A stretch of DNA of 60,447 nucleotides, from NCBI GenBank assembly GCA_044360305.1, contig JBIKKQ010000003.1, positions 1 to 60,447 on the forward strand, read 5' to 3'. The DNA is from Pirellulales bacterium. GTDB taxonomy: Bacteria > Planctomycetota > Planctomycetia > Pirellulales > UBA1268. Under the pieces are notes generated by a model. The model saw only the letters and a program-made list of their open reading frames with translations. It was not told where the DNA came from and searched no databases. Both the position numbers and the translations under genes were made by a program. Positions 2,219 through 7,900 of the stretch are shown in pieces (position 1 is the stretch's first letter; each line of letters starts with the position of its first letter).

Positions 2219-2740
2219 GGCGGGCAGATGCACTAGCACGGCCGGCACAACGGCAGCTACCGCTGTGCCAATGCATCCTGGGGAAAGTGCTGGAATTGGC
2301 TCTCGTGCGACCGGGACAGCAAGCTCCTCTTGATCGTGAAAGCGGTCGTCGCCGCGGTGCTGTCGCTCGAAGGCATGCAGGACGCGGTCCTCGCCCGCGC
2401 GAGGGAACTGTATGAGTCGGCCGGCACGCACGAGGCGGAGCTGCGGCGGCTGGAGGTCCGCGAGCAGAAGTTATGGTCGCAGATCGAGCATCTTGGCCAT
2501 GCCGTGGAGCACTCGGGTGGCGAGATCACCTCGCTGGTGAAGCGGCTCGCCGAGCGGGAACGCGACCTCGCGGTCGTGCTCTCGAAGCGCGACGACCTCG
2601 TGGCCAATAGCCGCAAGGATGCCCCGCTGCTGTCGGCCCCCGAGTTGCTCGCCCATCTTGAGAAGGTCAAGGCAGGGCTGCTGGCGGACGAGACGCGGAC
2701 AACGCTGCTCCGCTGCCGGGAAGCCCGAACCGCAAGGTGA
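2219..2740 (+). pseudogene. C-terminal remnant of a large serine recombinase (zinc ribbon + coiled coil)
   Basis: In-frame GGQMH*HGRHNGSYRCANASWGKCWN (in-frame TAG 2234-2236), continuing into a coiled coil (EAELRRLEVREQKL...LVKRLAERERDL); no catalytic N-terminal domain. Confidence 0.55.
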
Positions 2741-2954
2741 GAGAACACTCGCCGCTCACCCGAATGCCGTCCCGCATCCAGCTCGGCTCGCGCATCGGGC
2801 GTCGAGGGCACCGGGATCCGCTTCTCCTCTGACCGGCAGCGGGCCTGAACACCGACAGCGATCGCACGATTCGCGATCCCACCGCCACGGGACGACGCCG
2901 CCACGGCTCGGCTCCCAACCCGCCCGGCTCATCAACTTCTCACGCGTCGGCCCC

Positions 2955-2986
2955 TTGACGCCCCCCCCCCTCCGGTACGTTAACGT
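2955..2986 (+). promoter_or_regulatory. Candidate sigma70-like promoter with C10 tract in the spacer
   Basis: TTGACG (2955-2960), CCCCCCCCCC (2961-2970), TACGTT (2976-2981) / TAACGT (2981-2986), about 100 bp upstream of ATG 3089. Confidence 0.4.
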
Positions 2987-3088
2987 CCCCGCGGAGAGGC
3001 CCTGCCCCCACACGATCTCCTCGTGCAGGGAAGGGGCTCCTCTCCGTCCCGCCGCTGCCCCACCGTTTCTTCCCCCGCCGGTGCCACC

Positions 3089-6000
3089 ATGCTTCGCAAC
3101 CTGTCCGCGCGTTCCCGTTCGCTCATCGCCACGCTCGTCGGCCGTTTGGCCGTGGCGCATCGTCGCCGGTCGCGGCACGGCCACCGCCGCCGGCCGATAG
3201 GCGCCGAACTGCTTGAATCACGCGCCATGCTCGCCACCACGGCCACCCTCTCCGGAGATCTCTCCGGCTTCACCCAGATCCCGGTCACGTTCCTCAGGCC
3301 CGACGGCAGCGTCGGCTTCTCGAGGACCGCCTACGTCGGGCAGCTCGGCTGGTCGGCGATGACCGGCGACGCCGCCGCCGCCGGCGTGCCGGCCGCCTTC
3401 AAGTCGTTCTGCATCGACGGCCTGCAGTCGGTCGCACCGGGTACCAACTCGTTCGCCGAGGTCAGACCCCTGGCCGCCAGCTCCCTGCTCGGCGCGACCC
3501 GGGCGGGGCTGCTGGCCGACTTCTGGCGACAGTACGGCCCCGCAGACGCCGCCGGCTTTGCCGACAAGACCGACTCCGCCGCCTTCCAACTCGCCGTCTG
3601 GGAGATCATCAACGACGGCCTGCCGGTCGGCACCAGGCTGGCCTCCGATCTCGCCACCGGCCAATTCAGCGTCGCCGCCGCAGGGCGCACGATGCCTGCA
3701 GCCCTCCGCGCCGCCCAGTGGCTCGCCGGTTTCGACACCACCGCACCCGGCAAGACCGCCGTCGCGCTCCACGCCCTGCAAAGCCCGACCAGGCAGGACC
3801 AAGTGGTCTGCGTGCCGATCGTCGATCTCGACGTGGACAGCGACAACGACGGCACCGTCATGCGGTCGGTGCTCGAGGAGCGAGAGGAGGACGCGGGGGT
3901 GGCAAACGGCTCGACCTCCCCCACCAAGCCCGGCCTCATTGTGCCTGTCGGGGGCAGCCGCGCGCAGATGATCGTGGAGGTCCCCGCGGGACGCACCGCC
4001 ACGCTTGCGATCCCCCAGGGCGCCGAGAGGGTGCGAGTGTATGCACCCAACGACCCCACTCCGCTCGCCTTCCCGCTCTCCGTGTCCGCCCCGGCGGGCA
4101 CCAGAAGCACGACCTTGACCTCCTGGATCGAAGCCGTCGCCCCGAGCGCGAGCATGGCCGACATCGTCTTCACGCTCACGACCACCGGCAGCGGCCCGGT
4201 ATCGAGCGACACCGTCCGCGCCACTGCGGTGGCGGTAGATCTCGACGTGGACAGCAACAACGACAGCACGATCGATCCCGACAACGGCTCGGCTGGGACC
4301 GATGACCGGATCGAGAACGAACCCGAAACGCCCGGAGTGCGGCTGCCCGCCAAAGGCCAACGCACTGAAATGCGTCTGGCAGCGCATGCAACACAGCCCA
4401 CGGCGTCACGACTGCAGATCGATTCGGGCGCCGGCAACGTCGAACTGTGGGATGCCCCGACCGGCGGCACGCGGCTCATGCTCGATGCTGCAGACGGCAT
4501 CCGCTGGGCCGCCGGGCAGCGGCCTGCTGCCGTGTGGATCCAAGCCGTTCGCCCCAGCGACGAAGTCGGCGACATCCGCTTCACGCTCACCGAATCATTC
4601 GGCGCATCGGGCAACTTGATCACTCTCTCGGACGCCGTCCGAGCGACGGCGATGGCGGAAGTCATTTTGTTCTTTCACTTCGACACGCAAACCGCCCTTG
4701 ATGACCTTGAAGACAGCCTGCCGCCGCCCACCGCGGTCGACCAGACCGGCATGCTCGTCCTGACGCCCGCGGACTCGGCGGCGCTCCAGGCCCGCCGGGC
4801 TGCTTGGCTCGCGGGGCATCTGGCCACGCCTACGGTCGCCGGCACTGTCAAATCTTTCGCCGAACTGCAGAACGCCGTGACGGCCGCCGAAGCGAAACTC
4901 ACTTCGGCCCGGGCCGCTGCGGCGGCCATGACGAGCATGCGGAGGCAGCCATCGCAGCATACCAGTCAGCAGTATCTGTCGGCCGTCGAATCGGCTTTGT
5001 ACGCGCACGATGAATACCTCCATGCAGTTCAGGTGGCACAGAAGGTGCAAGCCAACTTCCTTGCCGACCAGAGTTGGATCTCTTCCCGGGACGAGGCCCT
5101 CTTGCAGCGGTTCTTTGCGTTACCCGTGCGGATCGACGGTCTGGAGGCCGACATCACGCCCGAGCAGTGGCGGGGGCTGACGGACTCGTTCGACGGTGTC
5201 CGGGCGAGTCTCGACCGCCTCGACGACAACCTGGGCCGGGCGGCAGGCGGCCTCCGGGCCACCCGCGACGTGCTCGCGGGCGGCGTCATCGCGGTCGGAG
5301 CTGTGTACGTGTTGCCGGTAAGCGTGGCCGTGTACGCCGGAGGTACGATCCTGGCCGGTGGAGCGATTCTCTCCGGGGCGAAGCGCTGGGATGCCGGCCA
5401 GTCGGAGTTCGAGGTCGTGTTCGGCGCTGCGGCCGATACGGCCGGCGTCACCAGCTTCTCGCTGGGCCTCTGGGGCACAGACCCCGTGACGGGTCAGGAA
5501 GTCGCCCTCACGCCCGAGGACGGCACCTATGAACTGATCGTCGGTGCATCGAGCATCTCGATGCTCGTAGGCATGCCGTTTGCCAACGGCCTCCGCGGCC
5601 CGACGACACGGATTCCGATGCCCAAGCCGCAGGTGCAGTTCGTCGAGTCATTCTCGGTCGTGGGCGACACGGTGGTTGCCAGCCCCGTCCCCGTTCCGGT
5701 CGTCACCTGGACGAAGGGAGCGATCGAGGTTTCCCATCAGGGCGTCGCGATCGGCTCCGCGTACGCCGGCACCACGCGCATCGTGGCTATGATGGCCAGC
5801 GGGCCGGGAAACAACCCCAACCTGGTAGGCTCGGCCGCTCAGGCAGAACTCCGTGACGTCGGCACGCTCCAGGGAAAAACGAGGGCCGAGATCGAAAACA
5901 TGCTGCAGCAACGCGGCTACACGGCTGTGCCCAATCGAGCAAATGATGGTGGCAAGGTATGGACGAAGAGTTTCGCGGACGGATCGACTGCGGTGGTTCG

Positions 6001-6184
6001 GACTGACCCCGGGAACATCAATCTTCCGCAAGGCTATGCTGGGCGGGTGGCCCATGCCCACAAGGAAATCGTTCCTTCAGCGAACGTCGTCAATGGGGAC
6101 TATCGGGGACGTGCAACAAAGCTCGACGACCTTGGTAACCCGTCTACCATCCACAGCGCAACCCACATTCCTATCGCTTGGTAA
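3089..6184 (+). CDS. Exported multidomain polymorphic-toxin-like protein: planctomycete export motif, thioester (TED)-like domain, two Asp-rich modules, hydrophobic pre-toxin region, C-terminal putative nuclease tip
   Basis: Arg-rich leader plus ELLESRAMLA; FCID / FQLAVW / RQDQVV; VDLDVDS(D/N)ND twice; Gly/Ala-rich hydrophobic stretch; His-containing C-terminal ~125 aa (HAHKE...THIPI) with visibly lower GC. Confidence 0.7.
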   Translation: MLRNLSARSRSLIATLVGRLAVAHRRRSRHGHRRRPIGAELLESRAMLATTATLSGDLSGFTQIPVTFLRPDGSVGFSRTAYVGQLGWSAMTGDAAAAGVPAAFKSFCIDGLQSVAPGTNSFAEVRPLAASSLLGATRAGLLADFWRQYGPADAAGFADKTDSAAFQLAVWEIINDGLPVGTRLASDLATGQFSVAAAGRTMPAALRAAQWLAGFDTTAPGKTAVALHALQSPTRQDQVVCVPIVDLDVDSDNDGTVMRSVLEEREEDAGVANGSTSPTKPGLIVPVGGSRAQMIVEVPAGRTATLAIPQGAERVRVYAPNDPTPLAFPLSVSAPAGTRSTTLTSWIEAVAPSASMADIVFTLTTTGSGPVSSDTVRATAVAVDLDVDSNNDSTIDPDNGSAGTDDRIENEPETPGVRLPAKGQRTEMRLAAHATQPTASRLQIDSGAGNVELWDAPTGGTRLMLDAADGIRWAAGQRPAAVWIQAVRPSDEVGDIRFTLTESFGASGNLITLSDAVRATAMAEVILFFHFDTQTALDDLEDSLPPPTAVDQTGMLVLTPADSAALQARRAAWLAGHLATPTVAGTVKSFAELQNAVTAAEAKLTSARAAAAAMTSMRRQPSQHTSQQYLSAVESALYAHDEYLHAVQVAQKVQANFLADQSWISSRDEALLQRFFALPVRIDGLEADITPEQWRGLTDSFDGVRASLDRLDDNLGRAAGGLRATRDVLAGGVIAVGAVYVLPVSVAVYAGGTILAGGAILSGAKRWDAGQSEFEVVFGAAADTAGVTSFSLGLWGTDPVTGQEVALTPEDGTYELIVGASSISMLVGMPFANGLRGPTTRIPMPKPQVQFVESFSVVGDTVVASPVPVPVVTWTKGAIEVSHQGVAIGSAYAGTTRIVAMMASGPGNNPNLVGSAAQAELRDVGTLQGKTRAEIENMLQQRGYTAVPNRANDGGKVWTKSFADGSTAVVRTDPGNINLPQGYAGRVAHAHKEIVPSANVVNGDYRGRATKLDDLGNPSTIHSATHIPIAW
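3821..4657 (+). repeat. Two tandem ~138-codon intragenic modules
   Basis: Both begin VDLDVDS(D/N)ND (3821 and 4235, near-identical DNA) and end DI.FTLT...SD(T/A)VRATA. Confidence 0.75.
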
Positions 6185-6198
6185 GCGAGGCAACAGCA

Positions 6199-6645
6199 AT
6201 GCAACATGATCTTGATAGGGCGCGAATCGTCGCCGCCGAACTGGCTGGCAGTGGTGAGCCGGTCGTCACGAAAGCCATTTTGGAAGCGGGTCTGGCGGAA
6301 ACGGTTGTCGCCGATCTTGTAAGGCTTCATACGCTCGAATCAGGCAGACCGGAAGACGGCGTCATTAGTTTAATGACCTCGCTGGGGGCCTTCGCATTAC
6401 GCTATCCCTACGAAGGCTGTCTGCTGATGGTTGCACTCTACCCGCTCGCGGGTGATCTGTACCTTCATGGCGAATGCGATGCTGTTGACGAATACATCTA
6501 CCATCTTCACCCTGCTGGGTTGGAGACGCGATTAAGAGGCTTTGCCGCCCAGCCATCCGATCCTCATGAAATGCGGAAGAAGTACCTGGAGTGGGCCGAC
6601 TGTATTGCCGAGTCTGCGACAAGGAACCAGCCGGACCAAAACTGA
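6199..6645 (+). CDS. Putative cognate immunity protein
   Basis: 148-aa ORF starting 14 bp after the toxin-like stop, GAGG upstream, same lower-GC character as the toxin tip, no signal peptide. Confidence 0.6.
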   Translation: MQHDLDRARIVAAELAGSGEPVVTKAILEAGLAETVVADLVRLHTLESGRPEDGVISLMTSLGAFALRYPYEGCLLMVALYPLAGDLYLHGECDAVDEYIYHLHPAGLETRLRGFAAQPSDPHEMRKKYLEWADCIAESATRNQPDQN

Positions 6646-6656
6646 GATCGGACGCA

Positions 6657-6950
6657 GTGCTCGCGGGTGGCGTCATCGCTGTCGGAGCGGTTGACGTGTT
6701 GCCTGTAGGCTGGGACGTGTACGCCGGAAGCACGCTCCTGGCCGGTGGAGCGATTCTCTCCGGGGCCAATCGCTGGAACGCCGGCCAATCTGAACTCGAG
6801 GTCGTGGGCGACACAGTGGTCGCCAATCCCGTCCGGGTTCCAGCCATCACCTGGACGAAGGGAGCGATCGAAGTCTCCCATCAGGGCGTCGCGATCGGCT
6901 CCGCGTACGCAGGCACCACCCGCATCGTGGCTATGATGGCGAGTGGGCCG
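6657..6950 (+). repeat. Orphan, internally deleted copy of the pre-toxin region
   Basis: 6657-6806 matches 5270-5419 and 6807-6950 matches 5663-5806; homology ends exactly at the codons for MMASGP. Confidence 0.9.
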
Positions 6951-6981
6951 ATGCTGAATGGCGCACCAACGGCGTCCCCCC

Positions 6982-7201
6982 GCAGCCGCTCTTGACCGCC
7001 TCACGTATCGCTGCCACATCCTGGAAGCCAAAGGCGAGAACTTTCGTCTCAGGCACGCCCGTCGGCGGCAGCGGCGGGCGGCTGGCCCGTCCTGACCGCA
7101 CCATGCTTGGAGCAACCAGCTACCCCATAGGTAGATTCAATCCAACCCCAGCGCTGCACTTTTCGGCCGCCCCGCGCTGCACTTTTCAACCGGCGTTCAC
7201 A
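6982..7201 (+). mobile_element. istB: IS21-family remnant: istB 3' end plus right terminus
   Basis: 6982-7095 encodes AAALDRLTYRCHILEAKGENFRLRHARRR (IstB C-terminal motif); GCGCTGCACTTTTC repeated at 7151-7164 and 7174-7187; ends ...CCGGCGTTCACA at 7201 (CA terminus). Confidence 0.8.
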
Positions 7202-7564
7202 GGCAGGACTATGCGGTGGACCGGCCACTCGGCGTCCTGCTTCACCACGAGCGGGACCGGCTGTGCCTGCTTGTTGGGAAGCGGATGGGGAGGGGCATTG
7301 GCCGAGGCGCCCGCGGCCATCAGCGCCGCGGCAAACATCGCCGAGCCGAGCGTGAATGCATGCTGGCGGGCCGGCGTACTCGGGCAGAACTGCTGCGGTC
7401 ATGGGAGGGGCTCCTGATGGTGGTGAACAACCGCAAAACATGGTGGCCAACGGTTGGACGCGCCGGATCCGAAAAAAGTCCCCGGGTCGGGCCAAATTTT
7501 TGGATATGGGCGAATCCTGGGGCCGGGCCGGCGGATATGCCGGTGTTCTTCGCAGGCCCCCGGC

Positions 7565-7900
7565 TCAGCGGCGCCAGCGGCGGACGACCCGCGGGCTCGA
7601 CCGCGGCACCGACCGCGAGCCGCCGGCCTCGACGATCGCGCCGGCTCCGGCGCCGCCCCCCACGACGCCCCCCACCCAGACGCCCGATGACCGCGGCACG
7701 GACCGGGTCGGAGCGTTGTAGTACGGCCAGACGCGACGCCCCTCCCGCTGCGCCCGCTCCCACTGCATCGAGCCGTAGTTGATGCCCGAGAGGTTGAAGG
7801 TGCGGTAGGGGTTCTGCGGCGAGATGGCCGCGCCGGGCGTGGCGGCCAGGGCGACGGCGAGCGTGACGGCGGGCAGGAGAACGCGGTGCAAACGGAGCAT
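7565..7900 (-). CDS. Small exported hypothetical protein
   Basis: Signal peptide (LLPAVTLAVALAATPGAA) then ISPQNPYRTFNLSGINYGSMQWE. Confidence 0.6.
   Translation of the reverse strand: MLRLHRVLLPAVTLAVALAATPGAAISPQNPYRTFNLSGINYGSMQWERAQREGRRVWPYYNAPTRSVPRSSGVWVGGVVGGGAGAGAIVEAGGSRSVPRSSPRVVRRWRR

Follow-up and report, generated by a model that had tools for sequence, protein, structure and literature searches.

A probable decayed orphan cassette in a polymorphic toxin locus of a lake-water planctomycete

We found that positions 6657-6987 of the window, which is the whole 60,447-nt stretch of DNA from a Pirellulales bacterium analysed here, are in all probability (roughly 0.88) the decayed remains of an orphan cassette that records a past exchange in the polymorphic toxin locus of a lake-water planctomycete. 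The parts of this locus named in this paragraph all lie on the plus strand. The locus begins with the main polymorphic toxin gene (3089-6184), whose pre-toxin region (5270-5806) starts with a hydrophobic, Gly-rich stretch and ends in the motif MMASGP. Behind this motif lie the C-terminal toxin domain, here called type A (5807-6184; 125 aa and a stop, low GC), and a putative type A immunity gene (6199-6645; 148 aa, also open from a TTG at 6178 with 155 codons). The orphan follows, and it is cut off by a probable IS21-family remnant (6985-7206). As read from its sequence, the orphan is a non-functional remnant that has neither a toxin nor an immunity gene and has suffered two deletions. The orphan itself is ordinary and dead, and its arrangement is of a known kind in a toxin family that was previously unannotated.

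The preliminary description of this DNA had placed a diverged copy of the pre-toxin region directly behind the putative immunity gene. The pairwise alignment it called for, together with blastn against the whole genome (a MAG of 3.79 Mb in 325 contigs), bore this out. The copy (6657-6950) consists of two blocks: 6657-6806 aligns to 5270-5419 of the main gene with 86.0% identity over 150 nt (E 7e-44), and 6800-6950 aligns to 5656-5806 with 90.1% identity over 151 nt (E 1.5e-52). No further copies of the orphan or of the pre-toxin region were found in the 3.79-Mb, 325-contig MAG. Relatives were collected from outside it as well. A word-based protein search with residues 700-1053 of the main protein returned seven proteins with four different continuations after the junction, and metagenome and genome contigs, when scanned with residues 700-928, gave 18 and 4 loci, respectively (22 in all, cited here by L numbers). 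Of the loci on genome contigs, two came from a Pirellulales MAG, one from a Planctomycetota MAG and one from a bin labelled Candidatus Kuenenia.

Between its two blocks, the orphan lacks 5420-5662 of the main gene, a segment of 243 nt or 81 codons that encodes residues 800-880 of the main protein. The 7-mer GGTCGTG is present twice in the main gene, at 5413-5419 and 5656-5662, and once in the orphan, at the deletion joint (6800-6806), which upholds the in-frame loss between two 7-mers proposed earlier. By a rough estimate, a random deletion joint would be expected to carry 7 nt of microhomology with a probability of about 1e-3 or less. The segment is kept in the main gene and in other orphans (those of L006, L007, L022 and L009). 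Relative to the L021 and L006 orphans, the window's orphan has a second gap, of 82 nt, at its 5′ edge, and L009 shares this gap. In the L021 and L006 orphans, homology to the main gene sets in where the small ORF before them reaches its stop codon, and the window and L009 lack the 82 nt at this place. Since a short GTGC match flanks the gap (window 6646-6660 compared with L021:1130-1215 and L006:3745-3830), it may be a second deletion of the microhomology type.

The copy lies directly downstream of the main gene's 3′ part, on the same strand and in the same order, as would be expected if that part had recently been duplicated in tandem at this site and had then decayed, with no exchange of cassettes. 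We regard such a duplication as most unlikely, since the identity between the copy and the main gene is just 86-90% and the differences are mostly synonymous: over 98 shared codons, 22 are synonymous and 14 non-synonymous, and dN/dS is 0.20. Moreover, parts of the orphan are nearer to other loci (92% to L020 and 90.7% to L019) than to their own main gene, and the copy runs into a different family of tips, type B, that is intact in other genomes. Because its divergence matches that seen in other genomes and its dN/dS is low, the orphan was probably once part of a working allele and would have diverged as such, not as a local duplicate.

The reading frames of the main gene and of the orphan both run to the same ...AYAGTTRIVAMMASGP, after which the main gene continues with GNNPNL and the orphan with MLNGAPTASPRSRS and a stop codon. 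It had been proposed that similarity stops exactly after MMASGP. This holds against the main gene; the part of the proposal that treated the orphan's tail as non-homologous does not hold, as the tail is the start of type B. The type-B loci L005, L008 and L019 match 6800-6987 of the window over 188 nt at 89-90% identity. Because this homology continues to 6987, the stub at 6951-6987 (MLNGAPTASPRS) represents the first 12 residues of the type B C-terminal toxin domain and not random sequence, and the cassette does not end at 6975, as had been given, but at 6987. A complete type B domain is present in L005 and in the homologous protein P0010. Shortened type B tips are also seen in two full-length main genes, where the tip stops after 41 residues (L008:2909-3031) and after 19 residues (L019:2760-2816). 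Type B is thus truncated in three of four distinct contexts, counting the 12-residue stub of the window, and is intact only in L005.

The orphan is cut at about 6987 by an insertion sequence remnant, probably of IS21, as the first reading of this region had it. The ORF at 6958-7095 matches Pfam IstB_IS21 (PF01695) at positions 211-236 of 238 with E 5.6e-5 and 23.2 bits, a score just below the 24.1-bit cut-off, with only the last 26 profile positions remaining. The matching frame differs from that of the orphan and begins at 6985, so that the remnant at 6985-7206 comprises the last ~26 IstB codons and a tail to the stop (6985-7095), followed by sequence up to the right end of the element. A 23-nt tandem direct repeat (7147-7192) lies inside it. 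Over 7088-7261, the word depth summed across contigs of three other lake-water runs exceeds that of the adjacent bins by a factor of 2 to 17, and contigs of other runs diverge or leave loose ends after 7203-7206. Because the rise in depth and the divergence of contigs mark the end of a repeated element, we place its right end at ~7203-7206. From the same depth, this IS end appears to be a common repeat in lake communities. By blastn across the MAG, no second copy of 6950-7300 or of the IS remnant was found in the assembly. IS21-family ends bear multiple short repeats, and the window resembles the family in having the end of an IstB-like ORF, then short repeats, then the end of the element. It differs in keeping only about 220 bp; IstA, the left IS end and both terminal repeats are absent at the locus, as expected for a remnant.

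The preliminary description had also named misassembly as a way in which the duplicate could arise. Strain variants of the same gene end might have been stitched in tandem, or a collapsed repeat might have mimicked a deletion. The source MAG is fragmented (325 contigs), the metagenome contig L016 begins at 5800, at the repeat, and Logan contigs break at repeat edges, all of which could speak for an artefact. Against this, L016 (1737 nt) equals window 5800-7537 at 99.7% identity and unites on a single contig tip A, the immunity gene, the deleted orphan, the IS remnant and the flank. In addition, of the words sampled from 5200-7400, at least 90% are present in each of 20 lake-water runs. Logan contigs from three of these other runs (X2, X6 and X10, none flagged as a possible source of the assembly) tile 5000-7600, with 0 other letters in 24 of 24 listed pieces. 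Among them, X2 record 13 (5846-6765) links the immunity gene to the orphan, X2 record 14 (6745-6896) crosses the deletion joint, and X2 record 15 and X6 record 23 (6881-7171) cross MMASGP and the IS boundary. In the raw-read run X23, 1 read was placed. The order of immunity gene and then orphan, with the same boundary, is also found in L009, L021 and L006. With L016 and the contigs of three other runs in agreement, misassembly is ruled out for practical purposes, and an artefact retains next to no probability.

Could the orphan still function, either as a silent recombining cassette or as a small membrane protein translated from GTG 6591? Its frame (6591-6995) is open for 134 codons from this GTG, the 52 residues that precede its junction share 88% identity with the main gene, its dN/dS is low, and about 150 bp at 90% identity could support recombination. 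A retained function is nevertheless very unlikely, because the toxin domain is only 12 codons long, no immunity gene accompanies it or was found elsewhere in the genome, and recombination with it would merely truncate the main toxin. Furthermore, 81 codons are gone, Asp has replaced hydrophobic residues in the hairpin (VYV to VDV, SVA to GWD), the proposed start codon falls within the 3′ end of the immunity gene, and the only stand-alone homologue of this form that was found is the L016 counterpart of this locus. Searches of the MAG, which is incomplete, for the rest of tip B, the type B immunity gene and the remaining tip and immunity types found none of them elsewhere.

The reading of a decayed orphan cassette is in line with the related loci, where the sequence after MMASGP varies as the preliminary description had predicted. 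A total of 27 junctions were obtained from the window and 20 of the 22 loci (26 by script, and that of L008 by alignment), while L017 and L018 have no junction. They fall into six continuations, each with small ORFs of its own: type A, starting GNNPN... (11 junctions); type B, starting MPNGAPT... (5); type C, starting GPDPGQGA... or GREPVQG... (5); type D, starting GPLLQGPADF... (4); type E, starting GPSGPVPEK... (1); and type F, starting GPSPQRDES... (1). Because related lake metagenomes supplied many near-duplicate loci (L006/L007/L022, L002/L003, L012/L013, and L016 with the window), the independent exchange events are fewer than the 27 junctions. All-against-all BLASTP shows that the six tips are mutually unrelated, except for a weak match between C and D (E 5.7e-5), and the alignment of homologues is near-invariant up to SGP and unconserved beyond it. 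Pfam searches of all six tips and of five homologues (P0006-P0010) gave sub-threshold noise only. The orphan pins the tip exchange point to the codon, and it does so for toxins that neither Pfam nor NCBIfam covers. With the exchange point fixed, the family can therefore be mined via the MMASGP pre-toxin region, and this search already gives six tip domains with immunity partners, none of the tips matching Pfam. As a side observation, the layout and sequence of L022 (CAZJHQ010000018.1), in the bin labelled Candidatus Kuenenia, are almost identical to those of the lake loci L006 and L007, and the taxonomic label of this bin or contig may be wrong.

Each tip type tends to be followed by a small ORF of its own kind. 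A 148-aa ORF at 75-100% identity lies directly behind every intact type-A tip; type-A tips with this partner are those of the window, L001 (where the tip is frameshifted), L006, L007, L009 (two), L010, L016, L021 (two) and L022. No such partner follows the type-A tips of L012 and L013, which are broken. Behind type C, a 127-143-aa ORF specific to it is present in 5 of 5 cases, and behind type D a specific 121-aa ORF in 4 of 4; for types B, E and F, one intact example each of the pairing was found. In these sequences, a downstream immunity-type gene thus co-varies with the tip for types A, C and D. The putative type A immunity protein has 24 close relatives at 72-100% identity; neither it nor the orphan ORF matches Pfam or NCBIfam.

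In the window, L001, L006, L007, L021 and L022, the first immunity gene is followed by a second copy of the pre-toxin region that is truncated at its 5′ end, and partial second copies are found in L004, L009, L011, L015 and L020. These orphans begin at differing points, and their arrays reach three units deep. In L006, L007 and L022, a main gene of type A and immunity A are followed by a type-D orphan whose pre-toxin region is complete, then by immunity D, a third stub and a transposase-like ORF. The reverse of the window's order is found in L010, in which the end of a type-B immunity gene is followed by a type-A orphan and its partner. Downstream orphan tip/immunity cassettes are therefore a feature of these loci, and the signature of orphan CT modules first read from the window alone is borne out by truncated copies with their own tips and small ORFs, by the reversed order in L010 and by the IS end. 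The ORF that closes the three-unit array (L006:5193-5570 and L022:8991-9368) is transposase-accessory-like and helix-turn-helix-like and contains ...KRERVSVALLKYWRRQ...; after the window, L006 and L022 thus give another example of an orphan array that ends at an IS element.

From these arrangements, we propose how the locus may have reached its present state. The main gene would encode a secreted protein made up of a lineage-specific leader and repeats, a helical region, a pre-toxin region to MMASGP and an exchangeable tip of ~80-125 aa, with the cognate immunity gene following. Incoming pieces would consist of a pre-toxin region, a tip and an immunity gene. Homologous recombination in the pre-toxin region would then join the incoming tip to the full-length gene and displace the old unit downstream, or, as an alternative outcome, the incoming unit would be left behind the resident immunity gene; either outcome would give an orphan without a 5′ end. 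The window's orphan would once have borne a type B tip. Its decay would have involved the insertion of IS21 with the loss of everything beyond tip codon 12, including the immunity gene, as well as the 243-bp microhomology deletion at GGTCGTG, the 82-nt deletion at the 5′ edge and charged substitutions in the hydrophobic hairpin. We infer this recombination mechanism, together with the toxicity of type A, the immunity function of its partner and secretion.

Orphan cdiA-CT/cdiI and rhs-CT modules are 5′-truncated, keep the conserved end up to the junction motif and lie downstream of the full gene. In CDI and Rhs loci, such modules carry different tips, each with its own immunity gene, and often lie beside IS elements. 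Neisseria MafB loci carry alternative mafB-CT/mafI sets as spare 3′ cassettes. The arrangement of the window is like these orphan cdiA-CT/cdiI, rhs-CT and mafB-CT cassettes; the main protein differs from those of all three systems. It has no TPS domain, hemagglutinin repeats or VENN motif and no CdiB-like neighbour, and so does not belong to CDI by defining domains or neighbours. It likewise has no RHS/YD repeats or PxxxxDPxGL core, and RHS_repeat is absent from the main protein (P0001) and from P0006-P0010, which places it outside Rhs. Its junction motif, compared to those of CDI and Rhs, is MMASGP, located behind a hydrophobic Gly-rich hairpin. Neisseria MafB (PMC7738311) is a Sec-type secreted toxin with variable C-termini and several variants per strain, features that the main protein and its relatives would share; the MafB N-terminal domain and a mafA neighbour were not found, and the locus is not assigned to MafB.

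Polymorphic toxin systems are defined by Zhang et al. 2012 (PMC3482391), who place the Planctomycetes among the phyla with many toxin domains. The six tips, the immunity ORFs, the pre-toxin region and the N-terminal region match no Pfam model derived from this catalogue. Among the papers listed in literature searches on polymorphic toxins of Planctomycetes or Planctomycetota, none describes this family in its title or the start of its abstract. The main gene had initially been called a polymorphic toxin with a defined junction motif, and this assignment gains weight at the sequence level from four features expected of the class: unrelated C-terminal domains behind a fixed junction, a downstream immunity-type gene that co-varies with the tip, downstream orphan tip/immunity cassettes, and the same tip on other delivery scaffolds.

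The last of these features comes from type A. GC over tip A and the immunity gene is 55-58%, compared to about 70% around them. A search of 1.84 billion representative proteins gave 105 relatives of type A at E<=1e-3 and 63 at E<=1e-10, in which the domain is mostly at the extreme C-terminus of host proteins of 70 to 5789 aa. The sequence upstream of the tip was scanned with Pfam in 24 of the 105 relatives, and 15 had domains there: RHS repeats in six (one also with PT-TG), PAAR or Tox-PAAR-like domains in three, CdiA-like TPS or hemagglutinin repeats in two (one with PT-VENN), DUF6861 in two, an eCIS core in one and PT-HINT in one. The remaining nine of the 24 had no Pfam domain. This distribution of upstream domains is as expected for a mobile toxin tip, and by its sequence relationships type A is one. 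Relatives of type B show 59-70% identity and are proteins of 238-293 aa; one of the 18 matches, a more distant relative (52%), has a YD-shell domain. In the Atlas, tip B matched unnamed clusters with a score of 0.93.

An alignment of 24 type A members shows invariant residues at R65, D67, A78, H83, H85, K86, H120 and I121. The AF2 model of tip A has a pLDDT of 92.6 and a pTM of 0.87, and in an exhaustive VIA search its best match was 8owu_C (PT7 in complex with its immunity protein) at Z 8.4, with an rmsd of 2.5 A over 75 of 76 residues and 25% identity; the next structure scores Z 5.0, and a Z near 8 can arise by chance. Foldseek with the tip A model against PDB gave nothing at E<=1e-3, and the sequence profile of the type A family gave 0 matches to PDB chains at E<=1. 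The PT7 preprint (bioRxiv 10.1101/2021.10.19.465003) reports this toxin to be a metal-dependent, non-specific DNase. Like PT7 of the PT7/PIM7 pair (PDB 8owu), tip A is a short C-terminal domain of a polymorphic toxin with conserved Asp and His; it differs in an extra N-terminal helical part of about 25 residues and has no match at the level of sequence. The model suggests that type A shares the PT7 fold. Because the profile finds no PDB chain, the relation is one of fold only, and type A would be a DNase by analogy with that fold. With at least 105 representative clusters and a confident model, tip A could readily be put forward for curation as a new toxin family.

Cassette-type diversification of toxins is known from Proteobacteria and Firmicutes, and interbacterial antagonism is little studied in Planctomycetota. 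The loci described here indicate that such diversification operates in freshwater Planctomycetota. A wider reading, which we offer tentatively and hold to be somewhat doubtful, is that they represent a planctomycete-specific class of polymorphic toxins not described before. This class would have its own leader (a basic stretch and ...LESRAMLA), repeats of the DxDxDxNxDG type, a helical stalk and a new pre-toxin module, in which a Gly-rich hydrophobic hairpin and about 140 residues to MMASGP might carry the tip across the target membrane and serve as the recombination handle. Tip A would then belong to a large DNase family of the PT7 fold that lacks a Pfam model and rides on Rhs, CdiA, PAAR and eCIS scaffolds.

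The pre-toxin module was characterized from the main protein. A hydropathy scan showed that the only strongly hydrophobic stretch of this protein is the Gly-rich segment at residues ~750-785 (nt 5270-5377); its length suits a helical hairpin, and the homology of the window's orphan starts exactly there. Among homologues, the hairpin (window 5270-5380) occurs in two sequence versions, VIAVGAVYVLPVSVAVYAGGTILAGG and AVAATAAFWAPVATVYAGGAAVAG, and it is more variable than both of its flanks. AF2 modelling of 396 residues of the helical and pre-toxin regions, with 11 close sequences in the alignment, gave a mean pLDDT of 43, with the pre-toxin part all below 50, which is too low for the model to be used. 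In an Atlas search, the pre-toxin region matched unnamed clusters best (0.90), and PT-TG and LXG clusters at 0.86-0.87 serve as leads only. Pfam (E<=0.1) and NCBIfam found no domain in the main protein. The neighbours of the main gene are DUF808, thymidylate kinase, DNA polymerase III delta' and UvrD, with no secretion genes found among them, and a scan of 2600-7800 for promoters and terminators performed no better than on shuffled sequence.

The ORF of the main gene is open from GTG 3023 (1053 codons). Nine other ORFs, spread over eight contigs of the genome, share the first ~70 residues of the main protein at 57-98% identity, and in eight of the nine a basic leader can be read that ends in ...RRRPIGAELLESRAMLA. 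Because this leader is conserved in the paralogs, the gene probably starts at ATG 3089 (MLRNLS...); the Atlas entry for the main protein also begins at residue 23, which corresponds to this ATG. Such leaders are typical of secreted proteins of planctomycetes, and the conserved leader may be a lineage-specific export signal. The paralogs share the repeat region and end differently. The leader at window 3089-3230 (MLRNLSxRSRSLIA..., a basic stretch and ...RRRPIGAExLESRAMLA) was seen to head at least eight different large ORFs of this genome, whose bodies and C-termini differ, with the leader ORFs located on contigs C113, C153, C134, C119, C49, C115, C30 and C103. A further locus of the genome, L023 (G000:C37:5300-7221, minus strand), shares residues 162-507 of the main protein at 46% identity; it ends in DUF922 with a HEEIH motif, has no MMASGP pre-toxin region and may be another effector on the same scaffold.
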